Positions 1,401 through 47,319 of a DNA stretch of 64,000 nucleotides are shown one piece after another. Within the stretch, counting starts at the first letter, position 1. Each line of letters starts with the position of its first letter. The stretch is from positions 6,000 through 69,999 of the forward strand of contig LBSX01000002.1 in NCBI GenBank assembly GCA_000990355.1, written 5' to 3'. The notes under the pieces were generated by a model. That model saw only the letters and a list, made by a program, of their open reading frames with translations. It did no database searches and was not told the DNA's origin. Source of the stretch: Candidatus Magasanikbacteria bacterium GW2011_GWC2_37_14 (GTDB lineage: Bacteria; Patescibacteriota; Patescibacteriia; Magasanikbacterales; UBA922). The translations under genes were made by a program, and so were the position numbers.

Positions 1401-1434
1401 AAAAACACCCCGCATTTTGCGGGGTGTTTTTTTT
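1401..1434 (+). terminator. rho-independent terminator after the csp gene
   Basis: ACACCCCGC-atttt-GCGGGGTGT stem followed by a T-run. Confidence 0.8.
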
Positions 1435-1442
1435 AATATTTT

Positions 1443-1495
1443 CCCTCCCCTATGAGGGGAGGGGTAGCCTGCCTGCCGGTAGGCAGGGGTGGGGT
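1443..1495. repeat. GC-rich composite hairpin element (CCCTCCCCT/AGGGGAGGG hairpin plus CCTGCC/GGCAGG hairpin plus GGGGTGGGG)
   Basis: Two adjacent perfect hairpins in the spacer between convergent genes. The same modules recur at 37916-37953, 38422-38449, 47248-47273 and 31756-31777. Confidence 0.75.
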
Positions 1496-3992: not shown

Positions 3993-6583
3993 TATATAGC
4001 AAATAAAAACCCATAACTCAAAGAAGTATAGGCCATATCTTGCCAAACAGTAAATTCATTCATATCCGGCATGCGGGCCCAAGGAGCATATTGTCGAAGG
4101 GCAGGAATATTTTTTGGGGTGGGATAAAAATTATTATACACCAAACAACCCCAAGCATCGGTAGGTTCACAATCGCCGTCATAATCTCGTGCATGGGGAC
4201 CATAAATAGGTAATCCAGGGACTGGTTTTTCTTGTTGGTCATACATAGAATTCAAATGTAGTGGAAATTCGGGATTTCTAATTCCTAATCCAGTTATCCA
4301 AGAAAGACCCAAAGGATTTTCTCCTAATTGATAATCAGCATTTAAAGAAATTGCGTCGATATATTTTTGATCTTTGGTAAAATAATATGCCATTGCAGTG
4401 CCAACAATACTTCTCATAGAGTTTGATCCCGAGCCCCAAGCAATTGCGTAATTAAAATTAGTAGAATTTTTATATTTATTTTCCATAATTTGTTCTACTT
4501 CGTCATTGCCAATTTCAATAATTCTATTTTTTACTTGTTCTTGAAAATCTCTGTCAACGTTGGTGCCATTGGCATTGCTATAACCCCAAAAAGAATAAAT
4601 ATTTGCAAACCAAGTAGGACCACGATAGGTTGGGTACAATTGTTTAAATACATTTTGATATTTTGTTTCATTGGTTAAAGCAAATAATTCTCCGGCGGCG
4701 TACATTTTTTCTCTTTCTAGTTCATTCAGTTTGTCTTCGTTACTTCTTTCTACAGGCGCTGTCGTGCCAAGGCTAGTTTGTTTTTCTGCCCAATCCCAAG
4801 CTTTCAAGGCTTTATTTTTTAAATCAGTGGCTTTGTTTTTTCCGGCGGGATAATTTTCCAAAATTCTCGCTAAATGTGCAGCTGCTCCGGCAAATTTATA
4901 AGAAGTCCATCTGTTTGGAGCATATGTCCAGTAGGGAAGTGTGTCACCCTCACATGTAGAAGAACCTGGGTGAGCATAACTCTCAACGCCAGCTCTTACT
5001 CCGCCGTCTGATTCTTGTAAAGTTTCCCATAATTTTATTCCCCATAAAGCTTCATCCAAAACATCTGGAATTTGGTTTCCACTTTCCGGAATATTTAATT
5101 GATTGTCTGTAAATTTATTAGGAAACATTTCTTGTAAGGTTGTTAAATCTTCGACAATTAGTAAATGCATTGGTCTTAAATCAAAATCACCAGCATCAAA
5201 CCAACCACCACTAATATTTATCGGGTTATTTTTGGAAGTATTTTTAGAAAATTTTTCACCAAAATCTTCCAATATATTTGTTTCAAATACTTGGTTCAGG
5301 CACATTTTATGAATCCAGTTGGTATATTTTGATTCTAGGGCTGTGCCAGCCCGTTGGTGGTACAAACCGCGAATTGCTGTATAAAAGGCTGTAAAAGCAG
5401 AATCTAGCCCTACGCTAAAGACAAGAGATCGACCAATTCCTTCTACCTCAAGATAATAATTACCTTCGTTTAAATCACTTAAATCTAATTCATATAAAAT
5501 TTCTCCACTTAGATTGTCCGATCCTAAGTTTGTTGATTTTCCCGAACTGACCAATTGTTTGGAACTGGCATTATACACTTGATAATTTAATTGTGTCGGC
5601 AATATTAAAGCACCGCCAGAACCTAACCAATAACCAACATAAGCATAGCGTTCTTTTGCTTTTAAAGAAAAACCATGTTGATTAATTTTAATAGCTTTGG
5701 CAATTTGCAAATCTTTGCCAGGCATTAAATTCCAAGAAGAAAATTGTTCATTGGAAAAATAACCAATTGTTCCGTTATAAACATATTTTTTACCTGTTGG
5801 GTTAATAAGTTCTACTGTATAATTTTGATCATTTTTTAATTCTTTAGGTAAAGTTAAATACAAAGTATGTCTTAAAACAACGTCGGCTTGGTTTTGGCCG
5901 TTATAATCTCTGTCTTCAGCATCTAATACTGCCGAAAATCGATCAATTTTTGTAGGATGAACAATATTTTTGTAATTTATATCACTAGTAGAAATAATAT
6001 TCCAATTGTTTGCATTCATTATAAAATTTAAATCAATTTCACCATCAAAAATTACTTCCGCTATTTTATTAGTAATTAGTCCAATTGAATTATTTTTTAT
6101 TACGACTTCAGAAGTAGTAAATTCACTGTCTGGATATATTTCCGAGTTGTTTATGGTTAATATTCTGTCCCAGCGATAGCCCAAATTATTAAAAGCAGTT
6201 TCATTAGCAATGTGTTTTTTTAATAAAATTCCTTTTTCACTGTATTCTAAGCGATAAACTTTATTACTATTAGCATATTTTATAATTGTAAATTCTGGGT
6301 GATGGTCAGTGTAATTTATTTCACCGGCAGTTTCGTATTTATTTAATAATTCGACATCAATATTTTCAATCCAATTCCAAGGGTATTTTAAAGAGTTAAA
6401 AATATTTTCAGATTTTATCCAATATTTTTTATTGTTCAATAATATATACACCTTTGGGTCGTTGGGAATTTTTACCAAAGCGCCATGCAGGGTGTTATTA
6501 ATAGAAAATGCTTTTGGCACAAACAATACAAAGGCAAAAACTAAGTTTAAAACAATTAAACTAAATATTTTTCTTTTATTCAT
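3992..6583 (-). CDS. secreted glycoside hydrolase family 9-like protein (endoglucanase-like) with long N-terminal beta-rich region
   Basis: Signal peptide MNKRKIFSLIVLNLVFAFVLFVPKAFS. GGWFDAGDFDLRP and DYQLGENPLGLSWITGLG resemble the GH9 catalytic signatures. Confidence 0.65.
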   Translation of the reverse strand: MNKRKIFSLIVLNLVFAFVLFVPKAFSINNTLHGALVKIPNDPKVYILLNNKKYWIKSENIFNSLKYPWNWIENIDVELLNKYETAGEINYTDHHPEFTIIKYANSNKVYRLEYSEKGILLKKHIANETAFNNLGYRWDRILTINNSEIYPDSEFTTSEVVIKNNSIGLITNKIAEVIFDGEIDLNFIMNANNWNIISTSDINYKNIVHPTKIDRFSAVLDAEDRDYNGQNQADVVLRHTLYLTLPKELKNDQNYTVELINPTGKKYVYNGTIGYFSNEQFSSWNLMPGKDLQIAKAIKINQHGFSLKAKERYAYVGYWLGSGGALILPTQLNYQVYNASSKQLVSSGKSTNLGSDNLSGEILYELDLSDLNEGNYYLEVEGIGRSLVFSVGLDSAFTAFYTAIRGLYHQRAGTALESKYTNWIHKMCLNQVFETNILEDFGEKFSKNTSKNNPINISGGWFDAGDFDLRPMHLLIVEDLTTLQEMFPNKFTDNQLNIPESGNQIPDVLDEALWGIKLWETLQESDGGVRAGVESYAHPGSSTCEGDTLPYWTYAPNRWTSYKFAGAAAHLARILENYPAGKNKATDLKNKALKAWDWAEKQTSLGTTAPVERSNEDKLNELEREKMYAAGELFALTNETKYQNVFKQLYPTYRGPTWFANIYSFWGYSNANGTNVDRDFQEQVKNRIIEIGNDEVEQIMENKYKNSTNFNYAIAWGSGSNSMRSIVGTAMAYYFTKDQKYIDAISLNADYQLGENPLGLSWITGLGIRNPEFPLHLNSMYDQQEKPVPGLPIYGPHARDYDGDCEPTDAWGCLVYNNFYPTPKNIPALRQYAPWARMPDMNEFTVWQDMAYTSLSYGFLFAI

Positions 6584-9860: not shown

Positions 9861-9865
9861 ATAAG

Positions 9866-9937
9866 CTCGGGAGGTGGGGATCGAACCCACGACCATCACG
9901 TTAACAGCGTGCCGCTCTACCGCTGAGCTACTCCCGA
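9866..9937 (-). tRNA. tRNA-Asn (anticodon GTT)
   Basis: Manual cloverleaf: acceptor TCGGGAG/CTCCCGA, D arm GCTC-AGCGGTA-GAGC, anticodon loop CTGTTAA, T arm GTGGG-TTCGATC-CCCAC. No encoded CCA. Confidence 0.9.
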
Positions 9938-9948
9938 ATATAAAATGT

Positions 9949-10077
9949 CTGTGTATTCACAGAAACTATGAACACATTAAATACCTTATACTTAAAGTGC
10001 GAAGCGGTACCACTGCCTGCCCGCCAAGCTTGCTGGTGATTGCGCCGGATGGTTGTGGTGTGAACCGAGAGGCGGGG
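9949..10077 (-). ncRNA. GC-rich structured leader or unknown RNA co-transcribed upstream of tRNA-Asn
   Basis: 129-nt GC-rich segment bracketed by 22-nt direct repeats (9927-9948 and 10078-10099) and preceded by a consensus promoter. CCCGCC/GGCGGG and other stems are present. Class not recognised. Confidence 0.35.
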
Positions 10078-10124
10078 GCTACTCCCGAATATAAATTGTT
10101 GGTATACTGTAAAATTGTGGTGAA

Positions 10125-19219: not shown

Positions 19220-19630
19220 ATGTTACAATTCAACAAAGAAGTAGACTATGCTTTGCAACTGCTTTTGGCATTAAAAAGTTTACCCGAAGGCCAGCTTTTG
19301 AGTTTAAGAAATTTTTCTAAAGGTAGTAAAATTTCTTTTTTATTTTTACAGCGTATCGCCTTTAAATTAAAAAATTCAGGAATTGTTAAGTCCGTAAAGG
19401 GGGCGCAAGGGGGTTATTATTTAGCCCAAAAACCACAAAAAATTACTTTTAAGAATGTGGTTGATTCTTTGGAAGGGGAATGTGTGGTAGCCAATTGTTT
19501 GCGAGCAGGTTTTTGTTGTGAAAAACAAAAGACTTGCAAGGTGCACGATGTTTTTTTCAATATCAACACCAAAATTTTGGAATATTTAAGTGCTATAAAT
19601 CTAGGTACAATTGCTAATTATGACAAATAA
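19220..19630 (+). CDS. Rrf2-family transcriptional regulator (IscR/CymR-like)
   Basis: N-terminal wHTH (DYALQLLLAL...) and a Cys cluster CVVANCLRAGFCCEKQKTC. First gene of the Fe-S operon. Confidence 0.8.
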   Translation: MLQFNKEVDYALQLLLALKSLPEGQLLSLRNFSKGSKISFLFLQRIAFKLKNSGIVKSVKGAQGGYYLAQKPQKITFKNVVDSLEGECVVANCLRAGFCCEKQKTCKVHDVFFNINTKILEYLSAINLGTIANYDK

Positions 19631-20927
19631 TTTACCTAAAAAACCAAAAACAAAAAAATTAGTATATTTGGATCATGCCGCTACTACATATGTAAGTCAA
19701 GAGGTAGAAAAAGCCACAAAGCCTTTTATAACCAAGATTTTTGGGAACCCCAGTAGTTTGTATGAACTAGGTAGAATTGCTAATGGTGAATTAAATGATT
19801 GCCGACGTAAAGTGGCGGAGATTTTACACGCCCTGCCTGACAATATTATTTTTACGGGTGGTGGTAGTGAATCAGATAACTTGGCTATTTTTGGTGTTTG
19901 TAGAAAAATTGGTAAAGGTCATATTATTGCTACCAGGATAGAACATCACGCAGTGCTTTATCCTTGCCAACAATTAGAAAAAGAAGGTTTTACTGTTACT
20001 TACCTAGAACCAGATTCACAAGGTTTTATTTCACCCAAAAAAGTTTTAGCGGCAATTAAACCAGACACAATTTTGATTTCTATAATGTATGCTAATAATG
20101 AAATTGGTACTGTAGAACCAATTGCTGATATTGGTCGCGAGATTTTAAAATATCGTAAAGCCAACAATCCTTCGGCAGGCTCAGGACAAGTTCAGTATCC
20201 TATTTTTCATACCGATGCTTGCCAAGCCGGTGGAGTGCTGGAATTAGATGTAGAAAAATTACATGTGGACCTAATGACACTTAATGGTAGTAAAATTTAT
20301 GGACCAAAAGGTGTGGGTTTGCTTTACAAACGTCGTGGAGTAAATATTCAACCACTTATTTTTGGTGGTGGTCAAGAAATGAATTTGCGTAGTGGTACTG
20401 AAAATTTAGCTGGCATTGTAGGTTTTACCAAAGCTTTGGAAATTGCTCAAGAAAATCGTCACGAAGAAAATATGCGTTTAGTAGATTTGCGCAATTATTT
20501 TTTTGATCAAATACAAAAGAATATTAAAAATATTAGACTCAATGGTCCCCAACTTCACTCTGATAAAAATCAGAGTTACACTGGGCAAGCTGGTTCTGAA
20601 GTTCTAAACAGATTACCTAACAATCTAAATATTACATTTATTGATGTAGAAGGTGAGGCAATGCTTCTTTATTTAGATGCTTACGGAATTTGTTGTTCTA
20701 CTGGTTCGGCTTGTACTTCAATGTCATTAGAACCTTCACATGTTCTTACCGCTTTAGGTTTGCCCTATGAATACGCTCATGGTAGTTTAAGATTTACTTT
20801 GGGTTATTGTAATACAAAACAAGATATTGATTATGTAATGAGATACTTACCAGCAATTGTAGAAAAATTACGGGAAATGAGTCCGGTGCAGATGGGGAAA
20901 GTTCAACATGCCAAATATAAAAAATGA
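19620..20927 (+). CDS. nifS: cysteine desulfurase (NifS/IscS class)
   Basis: YLDHAATT, HTDACQA, SGTEN and the SACTS active-site Cys loop. ATG at 19620; the track start 19611 is TTG. Confidence 0.9.
   Translation: MTNNLPKKPKTKKLVYLDHAATTYVSQEVEKATKPFITKIFGNPSSLYELGRIANGELNDCRRKVAEILHALPDNIIFTGGGSESDNLAIFGVCRKIGKGHIIATRIEHHAVLYPCQQLEKEGFTVTYLEPDSQGFISPKKVLAAIKPDTILISIMYANNEIGTVEPIADIGREILKYRKANNPSAGSGQVQYPIFHTDACQAGGVLELDVEKLHVDLMTLNGSKIYGPKGVGLLYKRRGVNIQPLIFGGGQEMNLRSGTENLAGIVGFTKALEIAQENRHEENMRLVDLRNYFFDQIQKNIKNIRLNGPQLHSDKNQSYTGQAGSEVLNRLPNNLNITFIDVEGEAMLLYLDAYGICCSTGSACTSMSLEPSHVLTALGLPYEYAHGSLRFTLGYCNTKQDIDYVMRYLPAIVEKLREMSPVQMGKVQHAKYKK
20169..20191. repeat. 23-nt GC-rich element CCTTCGGCAGGCTCAGGACAAGT inside nifS
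   Basis: Near-identical to the typA copy. Encodes PSAGSGQ. Confidence 0.75.
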
Positions 20928-21929: not shown

Positions 21930-22649
21930 ATGGAAAATATTGGAAAACTTTATATTGTTGCCACCCCAATTGGCAATTTAGGCGACATTACTTTACGCGC
22001 TTTGGAAACATTAAAAAGTGTTGATTTTGTTTTGTGTGAAGATACCAGAGTTACCCAAAATTTACTAAATCATTTTGCTATTAAAACAAAAAGTATTTCC
22101 TACCACCAACATAGCGGTGTAGAAAAAATAAGTGAAATTATTAAATTATTAGAGACCGGTAAAAATTTAGCTCTTGTAACCGATGCTGGCACTCCCGGTA
22201 TCTCTGATCCTGGGAATTATTTGATAGCTGAAATTGTCAAAAAATGTCATGCTGAATTTATTTCAGCATCTCAGGGGATCCTGAAACCAGTTCAGGATGA
22301 CAGTATTGTACCAATCCCAGGTGCTTCGGCAGTCATTACTGCTTTATCAATTTCTGGTTTTTCAACAGATAAATTTTTATTTCTGGGTTTTCCGCCACAT
22401 AAAAAGGGTCGCAAGACGTTTTTTGAAGAATTAGCAAAAGTAGAACACACAGTTTGTTTTTATGAATCAAATCATCGAATTAAAAAATGTTTAGGAGAAT
22501 TAGCCGACGTTTTGGAAGAAGATAGACAAATGTGCGTGTGCCGTGAATTAACAAAAAAATTTGAAACTATTTATCGTGGAACAATAAAAGAAATATTAAC
22601 AAAAAATATTTCCGAAAAAGGCGAATTTGTAATAGTAATTAGTAATTAA
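21930..22649 (+). CDS. rsmI: 16S rRNA (cytidine1402-2'-O)-methyltransferase RsmI
   Basis: LYIVATPIGNLGDITLRALETL...CEDTR...DAGTPGISDPG. Contains a hairpin-element insert. Confidence 0.9.
   Translation: MENIGKLYIVATPIGNLGDITLRALETLKSVDFVLCEDTRVTQNLLNHFAIKTKSISYHQHSGVEKISEIIKLLETGKNLALVTDAGTPGISDPGNYLIAEIVKKCHAEFISASQGILKPVQDDSIVPIPGASAVITALSISGFSTDKFLFLGFPPHKKGRKTFFEELAKVEHTVCFYESNHRIKKCLGELADVLEEDRQMCVCRELTKKFETIYRGTIKEILTKNISEKGEFVIVISN
22246..22301. repeat. GTCAT...ATGAC double-hairpin element, short form, inside rsmI
   Basis: ATGCTGAA/TTCAGCAT and ATCCTGAA/TTCAGGAT hairpins bracketed by GTCAT/ATGAC. Confidence 0.85.
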
Positions 22650-31755: not shown

Positions 31756-31777
31756 TCCCCACAAGGGAGGGAAACAG
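31756..31777. repeat. degenerate copy of the CCTCCCCT-aca-AGGGGAGG module
   Basis: TCCCCACAAGGGAGGGAAACAG compared with 37930-37953 CTCCCCTACAAGGGGAGGGGAACG. Confidence 0.5.
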
Positions 31778-31782
31778 AATGT

Positions 31783-34080: not shown

Positions 34081-34082
34081 TT

Positions 34083-34175
34083 GTCATGCTGAATTTATTT
34101 CAGCATCTCTTCGATAGATTACTTTTTGCTAAAATAATTAAATTAAGAAAGATCCTGAAACGAGTTCAGGATGAC
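34083..34175. repeat. GTCAT...ATGAC double-hairpin element, 93-nt long form (atpA-atpG spacer)
   Basis: Hairpin stems identical to 22246-22301 and 63253-63345. The AT-rich central spacer contains TGCTAAAAT (34127-34135). Confidence 0.85.
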
Positions 34176-34182
34176 AGACAAT

Positions 34183-37399: not shown

Positions 37400-40384
37400 A
37401 TGAAAGATCTGAATTTAGAACAAAAACAAGCAGTAGAATACACCTCTGGTCCGCTTTTGATTGTCGCCGGAGCTGGTACTGGTAAAACTACAGTAATCAC
37501 CCAAAAGATTACTTTTTTGGTTAAGCAAAATTTGGCCAAACCCGAAGAAATTTTGGCTTTAACTTTTACAGAAAAGGCAGCCGGGGAGATGCAGGAGCGC
37601 GTGGATCAACTATTGGATTTGGGTTATTCAGACATGCAGATTTCAACTTTTCATGCTTTTTGTCAAAAACTTTTAGAATTTCATGGGCTAGACATTGGCT
37701 TGTCAAATCAATTTAAATTATTAACTCCCACTGATGCTTGGCTCTTGGTACGTAAAAATTTAGATAAATTTAATTTGGATTATTATCGACCCCTGGGTAA
37801 TCCTACGCGCCATATCCATGAATTAATTAAACATTTTTCTAAGTGTAAGGATGAATTAATTACGCCAGCAGAATATTTAAAATATGCGGAAGAAGTGAGT
37901 TTGGATGATGATGCCGACCCCACCCCATCCTCCCCTACAAGGGGAGGGGAACGTAAGCGTCTCACTGAAATAGCTAATGCTTATCATACTTATAATCAAC
38001 TTTTGCTGGATAATAATTGTCTGGACTTTGGTGATCTAATTTTTTATGGCCTTAAATTGTTAAAAGAACGGCCAAATATTTTAAAATTATTGCAAAATAA
38101 ATATAAATATATTTTGGTTGACGAGTTTCAAGATGTTAATTATGCACAGTATGAATTGGTAAAATTGTTTACGACTAATGGAAATCAGTTAACAGTTGTG
38201 GGAGACGATGACCAGTCAATTTACGCCTTCCGCGGAGCATCGGTTTCCAATATCTTACGTTTTAAAGATGATTTTCCTAATGCCAAAGAAATTGTTTTAA
38301 CAGAAAATTATCGTTCAGGCCAAGAAATATTAGATTTAGCCTATAAATCAATACAAAATAATAATCCCGATCGTCTAGAGATTAAATTAAATATCAATAA
38401 ACAATTAAAGTCAGTAGTTAGTAGCCTGCCTGCCGGCGAGGCAGGTCTAAAGTCTGAAGTCGAATACAAGCATTTTAATACTTCAACTGAAGAAATTAAT
38501 TTTGTAATTAATAAAATTTGTGAGATTTGTAAAGATGAATCTGTAGTTTTGTCAGATTTTGCAATTTTAATTCGCGCCAATAGTCAGGCCGAACCGTTTA
38601 TTAATGCTTTTGAAAAAGTTGGTCTGCCTTATGAGTATCTGGCTTCGTCTGGATTATATCGCCAGCCATTAATTTTAGATTGTATTAACTTTTTAAAAGT
38701 ATTGGACAACTATCACGAATCCAGTGCTATTTTTCGTTTATTACATTTACCTTTTTTAAAATTTAATCCAGATGATTTACAAAAAATAACCTATTTTTCT
38801 AAGAAAAAAAGCATTTCTTATTATGAAACTCTAAAACGTGGATTGGAAATTAATTTATCAAAAACAGGTATTGAAATAGTCAATAAATTGTTAAATATAA
38901 TAAACAGTGGCACACAAATGGCCAAGGAAAAAAAACCTATAATAATTTTATTAGATTTTTTAGAACAAAGTGGTTATTTTAAATATCTTGCCTTGGAAGA
39001 TGAACAAGGTAATAGAGAAATAATTAAACAAATTAAAGAGCTACGAAGTTTTTTTGAAGAAGTTAAACACTACGAAGAATCAGTGCCTCAAGCACGCGTG
39101 TCAGATTTTTTGGAACATTATAATTATATTTTAGAGTCTGGTGATGAAGGGCAAATGTTTAAAAATCTAGAAGAAACAGAAGCGATAAAAATTTTAACGA
39201 TTCATTCTGCCAAGGGCTTAGAATTTAAATATGTTTTTGTTGTTAACTTGGTGGAAGAACGTTTTCCTAGTCGTAAACGTGGAGAAGCTATTGAATTGCC
39301 TGTATCATTAATTAAAGAAAATCTATCAGAAGTGGATTACCATGTTAATGAAGAAAGACGTTTATTTTATGTGGCCTGTACCAGAGCCAAAGAAAAATTA
39401 TTTTTAACTAGCGCGGATGATTATGGTGGGGTGAGAAAGAAGAAAGTTAGTAGGTTTATTGATGAATTAAATTTAAGTATGGAAGCAAGGCAACAATATA
39501 ACAATGTAACTATTGACACATTGCCACATTGTCACACTGTTGACAAAAAAGATATTAATCAGTCTAAAAGTACTACAATTTTATCTGACACCTTTTCCTA
39601 CTCCCAAATCAATTCATATCTTCGCTGTCCTTATCAGTATAAATTAGCCCATGTATTAAAAATTCCTACCACAGGCAATGCTAGTTTTAGTTTTGGTTCA
39701 ACTATACATAATACTTTACAAAAATTTTATAACCAGGTTATTGAATTAAATAGTATTAAACAAGATTCGTTGTTTGTTCAACATACTACAACTAAACAAG
39801 TTGGAGAAATAAAAGTTCCAACATTGGATAATTTACTAAAATTTTATAAAGATTCTTGGCAAGATGACTGGTATCAAAATAAACAACAACGAGAGGAATT
39901 TTACAAAAAAGGACATAAAATATTGGAAATATTTTATTCTTCAGAGCAAAAAAATGGCTGGACTGTGCCAGTTTTTCTAGAGAGCGGTTTTAAAATTAAA
40001 ATAGGAGATTATTTTATAAATGGACGCATAGATCATATTGATAAATTATCGGCTGGTGCTTTAAAGATTATTGATTATAAAACCGGTAAAGCTAAAGAAA
40101 AAGTAGTTGGCGATGATAAAAATCAACTGCTAATTTATCAAATTGCCGCGGAAATTTTACCTGAATACAAAAATATTGGCCCAGTTAGTGAATTAACTTT
40201 TTATTATTTAGAAGAAAATCTTACAACGTCTTTTGTTGGCGACGATAAAGACAAAACAAAACTACAAGAAAAAATTATCAAAACAATTGGGGAAATAAAC
40301 GATTCTAATTTTGTTGCCACACCCAGTGAACACATTTGTCAGCATTGTGATTTTAGAGACATTTGTCAGTTTAGACAATTATAA
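37400..40384 (+). CDS. UvrD/PcrA-type superfamily 1 helicase fused to a C-terminal PD-(D/E)XK nuclease with Cys4 (AddA/AddB-like)
   Basis: AGAGTGKT, VDEFQD, GDDDQSIYAFRGA, TIHSAKGLEF and VACTRAK helicase motifs. IIDYKTGK, QLLIYQ and RCPYQY...CQHCDFRDIC nuclease/Fe-S staple motifs. ATG at 37400. Confidence 0.85.
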   Translation: MKDLNLEQKQAVEYTSGPLLIVAGAGTGKTTVITQKITFLVKQNLAKPEEILALTFTEKAAGEMQERVDQLLDLGYSDMQISTFHAFCQKLLEFHGLDIGLSNQFKLLTPTDAWLLVRKNLDKFNLDYYRPLGNPTRHIHELIKHFSKCKDELITPAEYLKYAEEVSLDDDADPTPSSPTRGGERKRLTEIANAYHTYNQLLLDNNCLDFGDLIFYGLKLLKERPNILKLLQNKYKYILVDEFQDVNYAQYELVKLFTTNGNQLTVVGDDDQSIYAFRGASVSNILRFKDDFPNAKEIVLTENYRSGQEILDLAYKSIQNNNPDRLEIKLNINKQLKSVVSSLPAGEAGLKSEVEYKHFNTSTEEINFVINKICEICKDESVVLSDFAILIRANSQAEPFINAFEKVGLPYEYLASSGLYRQPLILDCINFLKVLDNYHESSAIFRLLHLPFLKFNPDDLQKITYFSKKKSISYYETLKRGLEINLSKTGIEIVNKLLNIINSGTQMAKEKKPIIILLDFLEQSGYFKYLALEDEQGNREIIKQIKELRSFFEEVKHYEESVPQARVSDFLEHYNYILESGDEGQMFKNLEETEAIKILTIHSAKGLEFKYVFVVNLVEERFPSRKRGEAIELPVSLIKENLSEVDYHVNEERRLFYVACTRAKEKLFLTSADDYGGVRKKKVSRFIDELNLSMEARQQYNNVTIDTLPHCHTVDKKDINQSKSTTILSDTFSYSQINSYLRCPYQYKLAHVLKIPTTGNASFSFGSTIHNTLQKFYNQVIELNSIKQDSLFVQHTTTKQVGEIKVPTLDNLLKFYKDSWQDDWYQNKQQREEFYKKGHKILEIFYSSEQKNGWTVPVFLESGFKIKIGDYFINGRIDHIDKLSAGALKIIDYKTGKAKEKVVGDDKNQLLIYQIAAEILPEYKNIGPVSELTFYYLEENLTTSFVGDDKDKTKLQEKIIKTIGEINDSNFVATPSEHICQHCDFRDICQFRQL
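37916..37953. repeat. GC-rich module CCCCACCCC plus CCTCCCCT-aca-AGGGGAGG inside the helicase gene
   Basis: Same hairpin as 1443-1463. Encodes DPTPSSPTRGGE. Confidence 0.75.
38422..38449. repeat. GC-rich module TAGCCTGCCTGCCGG...GGCAGG inside the helicase gene
   Basis: The 15-nt core TAGCCTGCCTGCCGG is identical to 1465-1479. Encodes SLPAGEAGL. Confidence 0.75.
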
Positions 40385-47247: not shown

Positions 47248-47273
47248 TAGTCTACCTACTGGCAGGCAGGCTA
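47248..47273. repeat. GC-rich module (reverse orientation) TAGCCTGCCTGCCAGTAGG
   Basis: The reverse complement matches the core of 1465-1483 and 38422-38440 with one substitution. Confidence 0.65.
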
Positions 47274-47282
47274 AATATTCTA

Positions 47283-47319
47283 CAAATACCTCAAAAAAAT
47301 GGGGTATTTGTGTTTTTTG
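47283..47319 (+). terminator. rho-independent terminator after greA
   Basis: CAAATACC / GGTATTTG stem followed by TGTTTTTT. Confidence 0.65.

Follow-up and report, generated by a model that had tools for sequence, protein, structure and literature searches.

How do the same short, GC-rich hairpins come to stand both in the spacer between two convergent genes and, separately, within the reading frame of a helicase-nuclease gene? The question is raised by a stretch of 64,000 nucleotides (nt) from Candidatus Magasanikbacteria bacterium GW2011_GWC2_37_14 (positions 6,000 to 69,999 of contig LBSX01000002.1, hereafter the window), in which a composite element at 1443-1495 shares its building blocks with the gene at 37400..40384 (+ strand). 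Its product is a protein of 994 aa (from the ATG at 37400, with Pfam matches) in which a UvrD/PcrA-type helicase is joined to a PD-(D/E)XK nuclease. The initial annotation had described three hairpin modules that move or recombine independently of each other. We find that there are two units, not three: an oriented unit A-C, formed by hairpin A and an adjoining G-run tract C, and a hairpin B. In our view, these segments are likely to be interspersed repeats resembling the repetitive extragenic palindromic sequences (REPs) and bacterial interspersed mosaic elements (BIMEs), which were inserted and are tolerated in protein loops.

The repeats of the window exceed chance

The word TAGCCTGCCTGCCGG occurs exactly at 1465-1479 and 38422-38436, and with one mismatch at 47259-47273 on the minus strand; 0.18 matches are expected, and three were reached in none of 100 shuffles. 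The hairpin pattern CCTCCCCT-nnn-AGGGGAGG is found exactly at 1444-1462 and again at 37929-37947 (expectation 0.05), so that the recurrence of the modules of 1443-1495 in the helicase gene, as originally proposed, goes beyond chance. The tract is present as CCCCACCCC at 37918-26 and as GGGGTGGGG at 1486-94, and its placement beside hairpin A is significant, unlike the bare 9-mer CCCCACCCC, of which the window holds 7 matches where 3.5 are expected.

The non-significance of this 9-mer by itself, as well as the simplicity of the motifs, which are (CCTG)n palindromes and C- or G-runs, would suit an explanation by chance similarity of low-complexity, GC-rich sequence or by an assembly artefact. 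Low complexity had already been named in the initial annotation as what would refute the relationship, and we tested it with a control restricted to GC-rich sequence, in which each of the window's 47 GC-rich islands (68% GC, 1277 nt in total) was shuffled within itself in 500 rounds. The longest word common to two islands measures 16 nt in the real sequence and at most 14 nt in the shuffles, and the similarity thus survives. In addition, five of the eight perfect GC-rich hairpins of the window belong to the A or B families. With regard to assembly, two assemblies from different samples are identical or nearly so over the parts that they have in common with the window, i.e., 100% over 14.5 kb for JGI 3300025308 and 99.99% over 13.4 kb for ENA ERZ27254745. 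Both overlaps cover the composite and the inserts in the WecG and SpoU genes described below and end short of the helicase gene, whose protein is encoded in identical form by six contigs. As assemblies from other samples agree, the GC-rich patches in the composite, WecG and SpoU regions are unlikely to be artefacts of one assembly, and genomes of cultured isolates (L060, L080) carry the elements as well. The explanation by chance or artefact was therefore rejected, and we assign it virtually no probability.

Two further copies had been proposed, and they fared differently. The copy after greA (47250..47273, minus strand, TAGCCTGCCTGCCAGTAGGTAGAC; originally placed at 47248-47273) follows the stop codon of greA (47244) and precedes the terminator of this gene (47281-47312). 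It matches TAGCCTGCCTGCCGG with one mismatch, but it has a degenerate 3' arm and folds weakly (z = -0.9). The supposed degenerate copy before atpH (31756-31777) departs from the A pattern at more than three positions and is not a repeat; it is the Shine-Dalgarno sequence of atpH (GGGAGGG, 31765-71), located 7 nt before the ATG at 31779.

Two units, A-C and B

In the A-C family, a tract of the GGGGTGGGG type comes after a CCTCCCCT...AGGGGAGG hairpin, and the B family consists of a hairpin of 21-24 nt, GCCTGCCTGCC-GGY-AGGCAGG, which is preceded by TA in this genome. With a stem of 7 bp and a loop of 6-7 nt in B, and a stem of 8-9 bp in A, both are short GC-rich palindromes in the sense used for REPs, which are imperfect palindromes of 20-40 nt with stems of 5-13 bp. 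The composite comprises hairpin A (1443..1463, +; CCCTCCCCT-ATG-AGGGGAGGG, with a 9-bp stem) as the 5' half of A-C, hairpin B (1465..1487, +; TAG followed by CCTGCCT-GCCGGT-AGGCAGG, with the 21-nt core GCCTGCCTGCCGGTAGGCAGG at 1467-1487) and the G-run tract C (1486..1494, +; GGGGTGGGG) as the 3' half of A-C. Folded as DNA, 1438-1500 reaches -18.3 kcal/mol (z = -5.0).

That A and C belong together is seen in public metagenomes, where a scan for hairpin A gave at least 120 stretches, with 131 matches listed. Of these 131 matches, 33 have a GGGGTGGGG-type tract no more than 16 nt from the hairpin, compared with 0.9% of control windows. In each of the 33, the tract is confined to one side of the hairpin, and the loop reads TCA with the tract downstream and TGA with the tract's complement upstream. 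Because the tract is one-sided and the orientation of the loop follows its side, A and C form one oriented unit; the helicase segment CCCCACCCC-AT-CCTCCCCT-ACA-AGGGGAGG is, therefore, the reverse complement of A-C. When the 21-nt core of B is taken out of the composite, AGGGGAGGGGTA followed directly by GGTGGGG remains, which resembles the B-free metagenome units AGGGGAGG-GTT-GGGGTGGGG. Hence, the composite at 1443-1495 is A-C with B nested at the spacer between A and C, situated in the 3' spacer of two convergent genes, and the three independent modules proposed originally reduce to two units.

All five B-like copies of the window are preceded by TA, so that the intergenic copy measures 23 nt and the helicase copy 24 nt. 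Four of the five are preceded by GTAG and the fifth by TTAG, and the GTA of the composite may simply be the A-C spacer. None of the modules reached the threshold of any family in Rfam 15, at gathering as well as permissive thresholds; near the composite (about 1400-1470), there were sub-threshold matches driven by the terminator.

Hairpin A also occurs in a second recurrent context, namely ACCYCTCCGTC, a variable hairpin, CCA, CCTCCCCT-nnn-AGGGGAGG and CCTTGGC. This arrangement was met at metagenome loci within L193-L311 (L211, L248, L262 and L298; in reverse in L196, L214 and L303), with many cases from human-gut and soil metagenomes, and has the appearance of an element of its own with several stems, or of a structured RNA, in which ACCCCTCCGT and ACGGAGGGGT form the outer stem.

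Probable insertions in the helicase-nuclease gene

The helicase aligns to PcrA (1pjr) with E = 2e-89 and matches the product of locus tag US42_C0002G0050 from Candidatus Magasanikbacteria bacterium GW2011_GWC2 at 100%. At site 1, its gene contains an inverted A-C (37918..37949, minus strand; on the plus strand CCCCACCCC-AT-CCTCCCCT-ACA-AGGGGAGG-GG), which reads DPTPSSPTRGG in frame. At site 2 stands a B unit of 24 nt (38422..38445, +; TAG followed by CCTGCCT-GCCGGCG-AGGCAGG) with the in-frame reading SLPAGEAG; its 4-nt centre GGCG appears to be the variant compatible with the reading frame of the helicase. Both inserts are in frame and free of stop codons, and the peptides deduced from the frame are DPTPSSPTRGGE and SLPAGEAGL.

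As had been proposed, both sites fall in variable regions of the protein. Compared with 60 orthologues, site 1 measures 25 aa instead of the most frequent 18 aa (39 of 60), i.e., 7 aa more, and site 2 measures 15 aa instead of the most frequent 7-9 aa, i.e., about 6-8 aa more; longer inserts are present in about 13 and about 12 of the 60, respectively. The alignment with PcrA shows a gap of 16 residues at site 1. In the AlphaFold model (mean predicted local distance difference test score, pLDDT, of 77), residues 172-179 and 340-348, which make up the two inserts, score below 50, as few other segments do. The former are modelled as a coil between helices 156-169 and 179-204, the latter as a coil between regular secondary-structure elements.

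The same two sites are also occupied in other Magasanikbacteria with orthologous helicase DNA (L001, L002 and L314-L316). In L001, site 1 carries the A-like hairpin CCCCCCT-CA-AGGGGGG, and in L002 it carries a B-like hairpin inside an outer stem. Site 2 is filled by TGTCAT...ATGACA elements of 78-87 nt, coding for 'CHPERSEGS...QNDK'-type peptides, in L002, L314 and L316, and by a 75-nt GC-rich insert with a matching GGAATGAC at its end in L315. Since different families occupy the same loops, selection for permissive loops explains this clustering at least as well as targeting does.

At a third position of the helicase gene, two of these relatives contain TGTCAT/ATGACA pairs that are 67-92 nt apart (L002 12253-12345 and L001 8512-8579), which suggests further in-frame insertions of elements.

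The intragenic copies could also be untranslated, either because they are removed from the mRNA or because they are bypassed by the ribosome. Precedents for bypass are the GC-rich 'byp' inserts of yeast mitochondria and gene 60 of phage T4, and GC-rich hairpins in AT-rich genes do look like byp elements. However, all intragenic copies examined are in frame, free of stop codons and a multiple of three in length, which bypass would not need, and the predicted protein structure accommodates both helicase inserts as loops. We regard this option as highly improbable.

Distribution of B in other genomes and viral contigs

B was searched for in one genome per GTDB species with the pattern GCCTGCCTGCC-N3-4-AGGCAGG, which returned at least 120 stretches; the following numbers and taxa refer to the matches listed. 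Some of their taxon labels are ENA placeholders, and L072, labelled 'Gammaproteobacteria', is a Daviesbacteria contig according to its tryptophanyl-tRNA synthetase (TrpRS). Within the candidate phyla radiation (CPR), B was found in Wolfe-, Uhr-, Davies-, Yanofsky-, Doudna-, Falkow- and Moranbacteria as well as in Saccharibacteria, WWE3, Peri- and Peregrinibacteria and Absconditabacteria. Beyond the CPR, it occurs in Bacteroidota (including two cultured isolates), Omnitrophota, Planctomycetota and Chloroflexota and further in Desulfobacterota, Nitrospirota, Elusimicrobia and others. No Magasanikbacteria record is among the matches listed. Of the 127 copies listed, 44 have GGC and 38 have GGT as their unconstrained centre (82 together), and the GGCG centre of the helicase copy recurs six times, in six other genomes.

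More than half of the listed matches lie in loci with less than 45% GC, where chance matches are least likely. In these loci, 18% of the copies fall into open frames of at least 600 nt, in comparison to 68% of random positions. In-frame intragenic copies, usually reading GLPAGRQ(G), were observed in various phyla in rpsF, trpS, rsmI and rmlB as well as in genes for DNA ligase, glycosyltransferases and a histidine kinase. Of the listed copies, 20% stand within an outer inverted repeat of at least 6 bp, compared with 4.5% of the controls, which places them inside the loop of a further hairpin, often one of the TGTCAT family. Direct repeats of at least 6 nt lie near 30% of the listed copies, many of them being heptamer-like tandem repeats.

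B was also found in 69 viral stretches. Many of these matches are located in contigs with 60-70% GC and in related phages, where chance and common ancestry inflate the count, and we give them little weight. Persuasive are only the matches in low-GC contigs and a contig that contains three A-B-C composites.

Such arrays might indicate that the composite came first, i.e., that a whole A-B-C array spreads and that the helicase pieces are decayed fragments of two composites. In fact, an A-type polypyrimidine hairpin stands directly upstream of B, in the same orientation, in 8 of the 133 matches listed, compared with 0.2% of controls, and such adjacency comes from at least five phyla. Arrays of A-B(-C) with the same order and orientation occur in several phyla besides the three in one viral contig, and the junction GGG-TAG-(G)CCTGCC recurs at 1460, at 61326 and in the WecG array. 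However, about 94% of the 133 listed matches of B are solitary, without an A-type neighbour, the rest being nested in other hairpins or standing beside an A-type hairpin, and A-C without B is common (33 of the 131 listed). In trpS and rpsF, moreover, B alone makes up exactly 21 nt, and the helicase pieces match whole units, an inverted A-C and a B, instead of random fragments. B also stays constant while A and C vary, as would be expected if B had entered diverged A-C units. An origin from composites is thus improbable.

B as an exact block in Daviesbacteria trpS

In alignment with a solved structure, the TrpRS of Daviesbacteria carries exactly seven extra residues, which face a gap. The corresponding insert is present at one codon in nine or ten of 120 Daviesbacteria orthologues, whose carriers are scattered over the neighbour-joining tree (about seven changes by parsimony), and for most carriers the nearest relatives, at 84-90% identity, lack it. 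Comparing the filled junction GAAG[GCCTGCCTGCCGGYAGGCAGG]TTTT with the empty junctions GAAATCTTC or GATATTTTT defines a unit of exactly 21 nt, with a boundary ambiguity of at most 1 nt and no target duplication. The pattern reflects repeated insertion, repeated precise loss or allele exchange by recombination, and any of these makes B a unit that behaves block-wise. Together with the mostly solitary occurrence of B elsewhere, this gain and loss of a 21-nt block speaks for the part of the initial proposal that has the units move or recombine on their own, although within the Magasanikbacteria genome itself we infer such movement.

The patchiness at one trpS codon also bears on whether the segments are structural elements selected in place, e.g., as 3' mRNA stabilisers, terminator helpers or translation-pausing RNA hairpins between helicase domains, with the similarity across genomes arising from selection for a protein-binding or very stable hairpin. 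The extragenic window copies of B and the composite (47250-47273 and 1443-1495) do have a stop codon to one side and a terminator to the other, the stability of the hairpins is very high, and the G-runs beside B could, as read from the sequence, form a G-quadruplex. Besides the patchy trpS codon, this option is opposed by the identity of the 21 nt in unrelated genes, spacers, other hairpins and viral contigs across phyla, by the many helicase orthologues (most of them) without an insert at either site and by the lack of an Rfam family match. Selection in place, including the selective origin of the cross-genome similarity, is in our opinion unlikely.

Relation to known repeat families and possible mode of spread

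REPs tagged with GTAG or CGTC have been described in more than 80 species of eight phyla, mostly at extragenic positions near the 3' ends of genes (Di Nocera et al., 2013; PMC3733652). Intragenic REPs add residues to proteins, conspicuously in UvrD/Rep, RecBCD, UvrABC and polymerase genes, and the authors argue that such insertions are possibly neutral in linkers or loops (PMC3733652). As intragenic REPs in repair genes are on record, A-C and B are elements of a kind already known. Their likeness to the GTAG REPs extends to several features: these are dispersed GC-rich palindromes of 20-40 nt with stems of 6-9 bp, are present in multiple, mostly extragenic copies near 3' ends between convergent or co-directional genes, and have some in-frame copies within genes, notably DNA-repair genes (UvrD/Rep, RecBCD). 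In this genome, (G)TAG stands before the unit.

Taken together, it is likely that the segments of the window are REP/BIME-like interspersed repeats. The units would have been inserted as single blocks and would not have evolved in place. Within genes, copies would be translated into short Pro/Gly/Ser/Arg-rich loops and would persist where they are free of stop codons, have a length that is a multiple of three and fall into permissive surface loops. Spread could proceed via a trans-acting activity that recognises single-stranded hairpins. The systems of REPs and REP-associated tyrosine transposases (RAYTs), or of REP doublets forming hairpins (REPINs), offer a model for this (Bertels and Rainey, 2011; PMC3116915); because the hairpin units lack a consistent target duplication, the single-strand REP/RAYT (HUH/Y1) model fits. 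A RAYT-like enzyme as the agent of spread is, nevertheless, a tentative and rather doubtful proposal.

Several observations weigh against the assignment to REP-like repeats. Members of the GTAG super-family carry an unpaired GTAG tag in more than 90% of cases and have a cognate RAYT gene, typically flanked by the repeats. For the B family as a whole, a GTAG tag is unlikely, as only 3 of the 127 listed copies elsewhere have GTA before the first G, and a tblastn search with RayT of E. coli over the window and over loci with A or B that total 2.4 Mb had no match at E <= 1, with a single query of low sensitivity and about 72 kb representing the source genome. The replicative unit of REPINs is an inverted doublet forming a long hairpin, whereas the B copies of the window are single, without an inverted partner within 100 nt. 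REPs usually covary with their host, for which a near-identical 21-nt unit in many phyla is unusual; the presence of this unit in viral contigs and the CPR host are further differences to the REPs described. Moreover, B has no consistent target-site signature: a fixed target-site duplication was considered and rejected, with immediate direct repeats of 6-13 nt in 6 of 124 listed copies and at most 1 nt in intragenic ones. The closest helicase orthologue is 68% identical, which precludes an empty-site comparison for the window copies, the translation of the inserts rests on their reading frame, and the patchiness in trpS could reflect recombination or repeated precise loss and not repeated insertion.

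B also differs from miniature inverted-repeat transposable elements, which have terminal inverted repeats and a target-site duplication of fixed length: it is itself palindromic, but its flanks show no constant duplication in the 124 listed copies and the intragenic junctions. The BIMEs of E. coli, in which REP (PU) units are joined with other short motifs, are similar in that short modules stand in variable order and orientation within one spacer, nested beside or inside each other. They are strictly extragenic and specific to enterobacteria, and we know of no sequence relationship to A-C or B. Rickettsia palindromic elements likewise lie in frame in housekeeping genes of an AT-rich, reduced genome and are tolerated as surface peptides; at about 100-150 bp and confined to one genus, they differ from the units described here, which measure 21-35 nt and cross phyla, and A-C and B are not members of that family. 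With B, the small dispersed repeats (SDRs) that Elhai and co-workers described in Nostoc in 2008 share, by their description rather than by sequence, a number of traits. They are said to measure 21-27 nt, to lack an obvious transposase, to be nested in repeats or hairpins and to occur with short tandem repeats, and are reportedly described only in cyanobacteria; the heptamer-like tandem repeats flanking many B copies are the matching trait on our side. The GC clusters of yeast mitochondria are GC-rich hairpins in an AT-rich genome and occasionally coding. As they belong to a eukaryotic organelle and, to our knowledge, have no sequence relationship to A-C or B, they serve as an analogy only.

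A more far-reaching option, which we put forward as a speculation with modest prospects, would be that B, and perhaps A-C, constitute a family of minute mobile elements that extends across the bacteria and is carried in part by viruses. Its 21-nt hairpin would equal seven codons that are free of stops in most frames on both strands, and it would be precisely inserted into or excised from spacers, hairpins and essential genes in more than 10 phyla, leaving no consistent target duplication, by machinery other than a cognate RAYT. If so, few known insertion units of autonomous appearance would be as small as B, and short loop insertions in proteins would have a general source in it.

In the full-text literature, we found nothing relevant on the sequences of B and A-C or on the peptides LPAGRQ, HPERSEGS and GRVGVGMG, and the literature searched contained no paper on REPs in CPR/Patescibacteria and no case of one 21-nt unit shared across so many phyla and viral contigs. 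REP-like elements with intragenic copies, known from repair genes of Proteobacteria and Verrucomicrobia, would thus extend to the reduced genomes of the CPR. They explain the odd GC-rich patches in a genome of 33% GC as well as short loops rich in Pro, Gly and Arg in the helicase, in WecG and in RsmI, and annotators and structure predictors should treat such loops as repeat-derived inserts and not as functional motifs. The trpS series of Daviesbacteria provides a natural system for studying gain and loss of tiny palindromes without an evident transposase, which is an old question in the REP field. The breadth of the distribution of B and its exact seven-codon behaviour are worth following up.

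Other inserts and neighbouring genes of the window

The window has a GC content of 32.7%, and its genes are ordinary housekeeping genes, including those for ATP synthase, mreBCD, aminoacyl-tRNA synthetases, two greA paralogues and cspA. A diverged, in-frame array of five hairpins is present in a WecG/TagA glycosyltransferase gene (62538..62682, minus strand, 145 nt). It contains an A-like hairpin, GTAG, a B-like hairpin (GCCTGCC...GGCAGGC) and a G-run, which is the order of the composite, and three more hairpins; the fold as DNA reaches -37 kcal/mol (z = -5.0). In the protein, residues 70-115 (46 residues) stand in for 8 residues of TagA (7mpk).

A possible B-related segment in a SpoU/TrmH methyltransferase gene (61290..61352, minus strand) has the 12-mer GGGTAGCCTGCC in common with the composite. 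It makes the protein about 6 aa longer than 2i6d, overlaps a conserved motif and does not fold significantly (z = -0.8), so its status as an insertion is ambiguous. On the plus strand, 20169-20180 within the open reading frame 19611-20927 reads CCTTCGGCAGGC (PSAG in translation), the reverse complement of GCCTGCCGAAGG at 61333 in the SpoU segment; this may be a short B-related remnant or a chance match.

A second family, with TGTCAT-type terminal inverted repeats, is present at 22245-22303 (+, inside rsmI), 34081-34177 and 63251-63347 and in L313 (17212-17330). One end of its elements carries TGTCATGCTGAA...TTCAGCATC and the opposite end GATCCTGAA...TTCAGGATGACA. Between the two hairpins lie about 40 nt of AT-rich spacer in the intergenic copies and 5 nt in the copy within rsmI, which adds 13-17 residues in comparison to RsmI (3kwp). 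GC-richer versions, TGTCATCCTGAGCGAAGCGAAGGATC...CAGAATGACA, are the elements that occupy helicase site 2 in other Magasanikbacteria, and loops of this family often host B in other phyla.

The copy at 34081-34177, a 97-nt TGTCAT...ATGACA element, lies in the atpA-atpG spacer. In a related Magasanikbacteria contig, the same spacer holds a gene for a four-helix-bundle protein of the 23S_rRNA_IVP/bAvd type (L002 2920-3345), flanked by inverted repeats of its own, ACAATATACATGGA ... TCCATGTATTTTGTATATTGT. A link between the two was considered and discarded, as the repeats differ (ACAATATACA...TGGA) and no link in sequence was found.

The composite at 1443-1495 sits between the intrinsic terminator of the cspA-like gene (1401..1431, +) and the stop codon of the convergent gene (1500). 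The cold-shock gene directly upstream of it gives a sub-threshold match to the cspA thermoregulator RF01766 (1092-1433, +; 47 bits, with a gathering score of 78), which spans the 5' untranslated region and the coding region. Finally, a GC-rich stretch of about 90 nt without Rfam match (10000-10095) lies beside the gene for tRNA-Asn (9865-9937, minus strand). Its minus strand opens with an 18-nt duplicate of the 5' end of tRNA-Asn plus upstream bases (TTTATATTCGGGAGTAGC) and then diverges; the stretch may represent a small RNA that has escaped recognition or the remnant of a tRNA gene.

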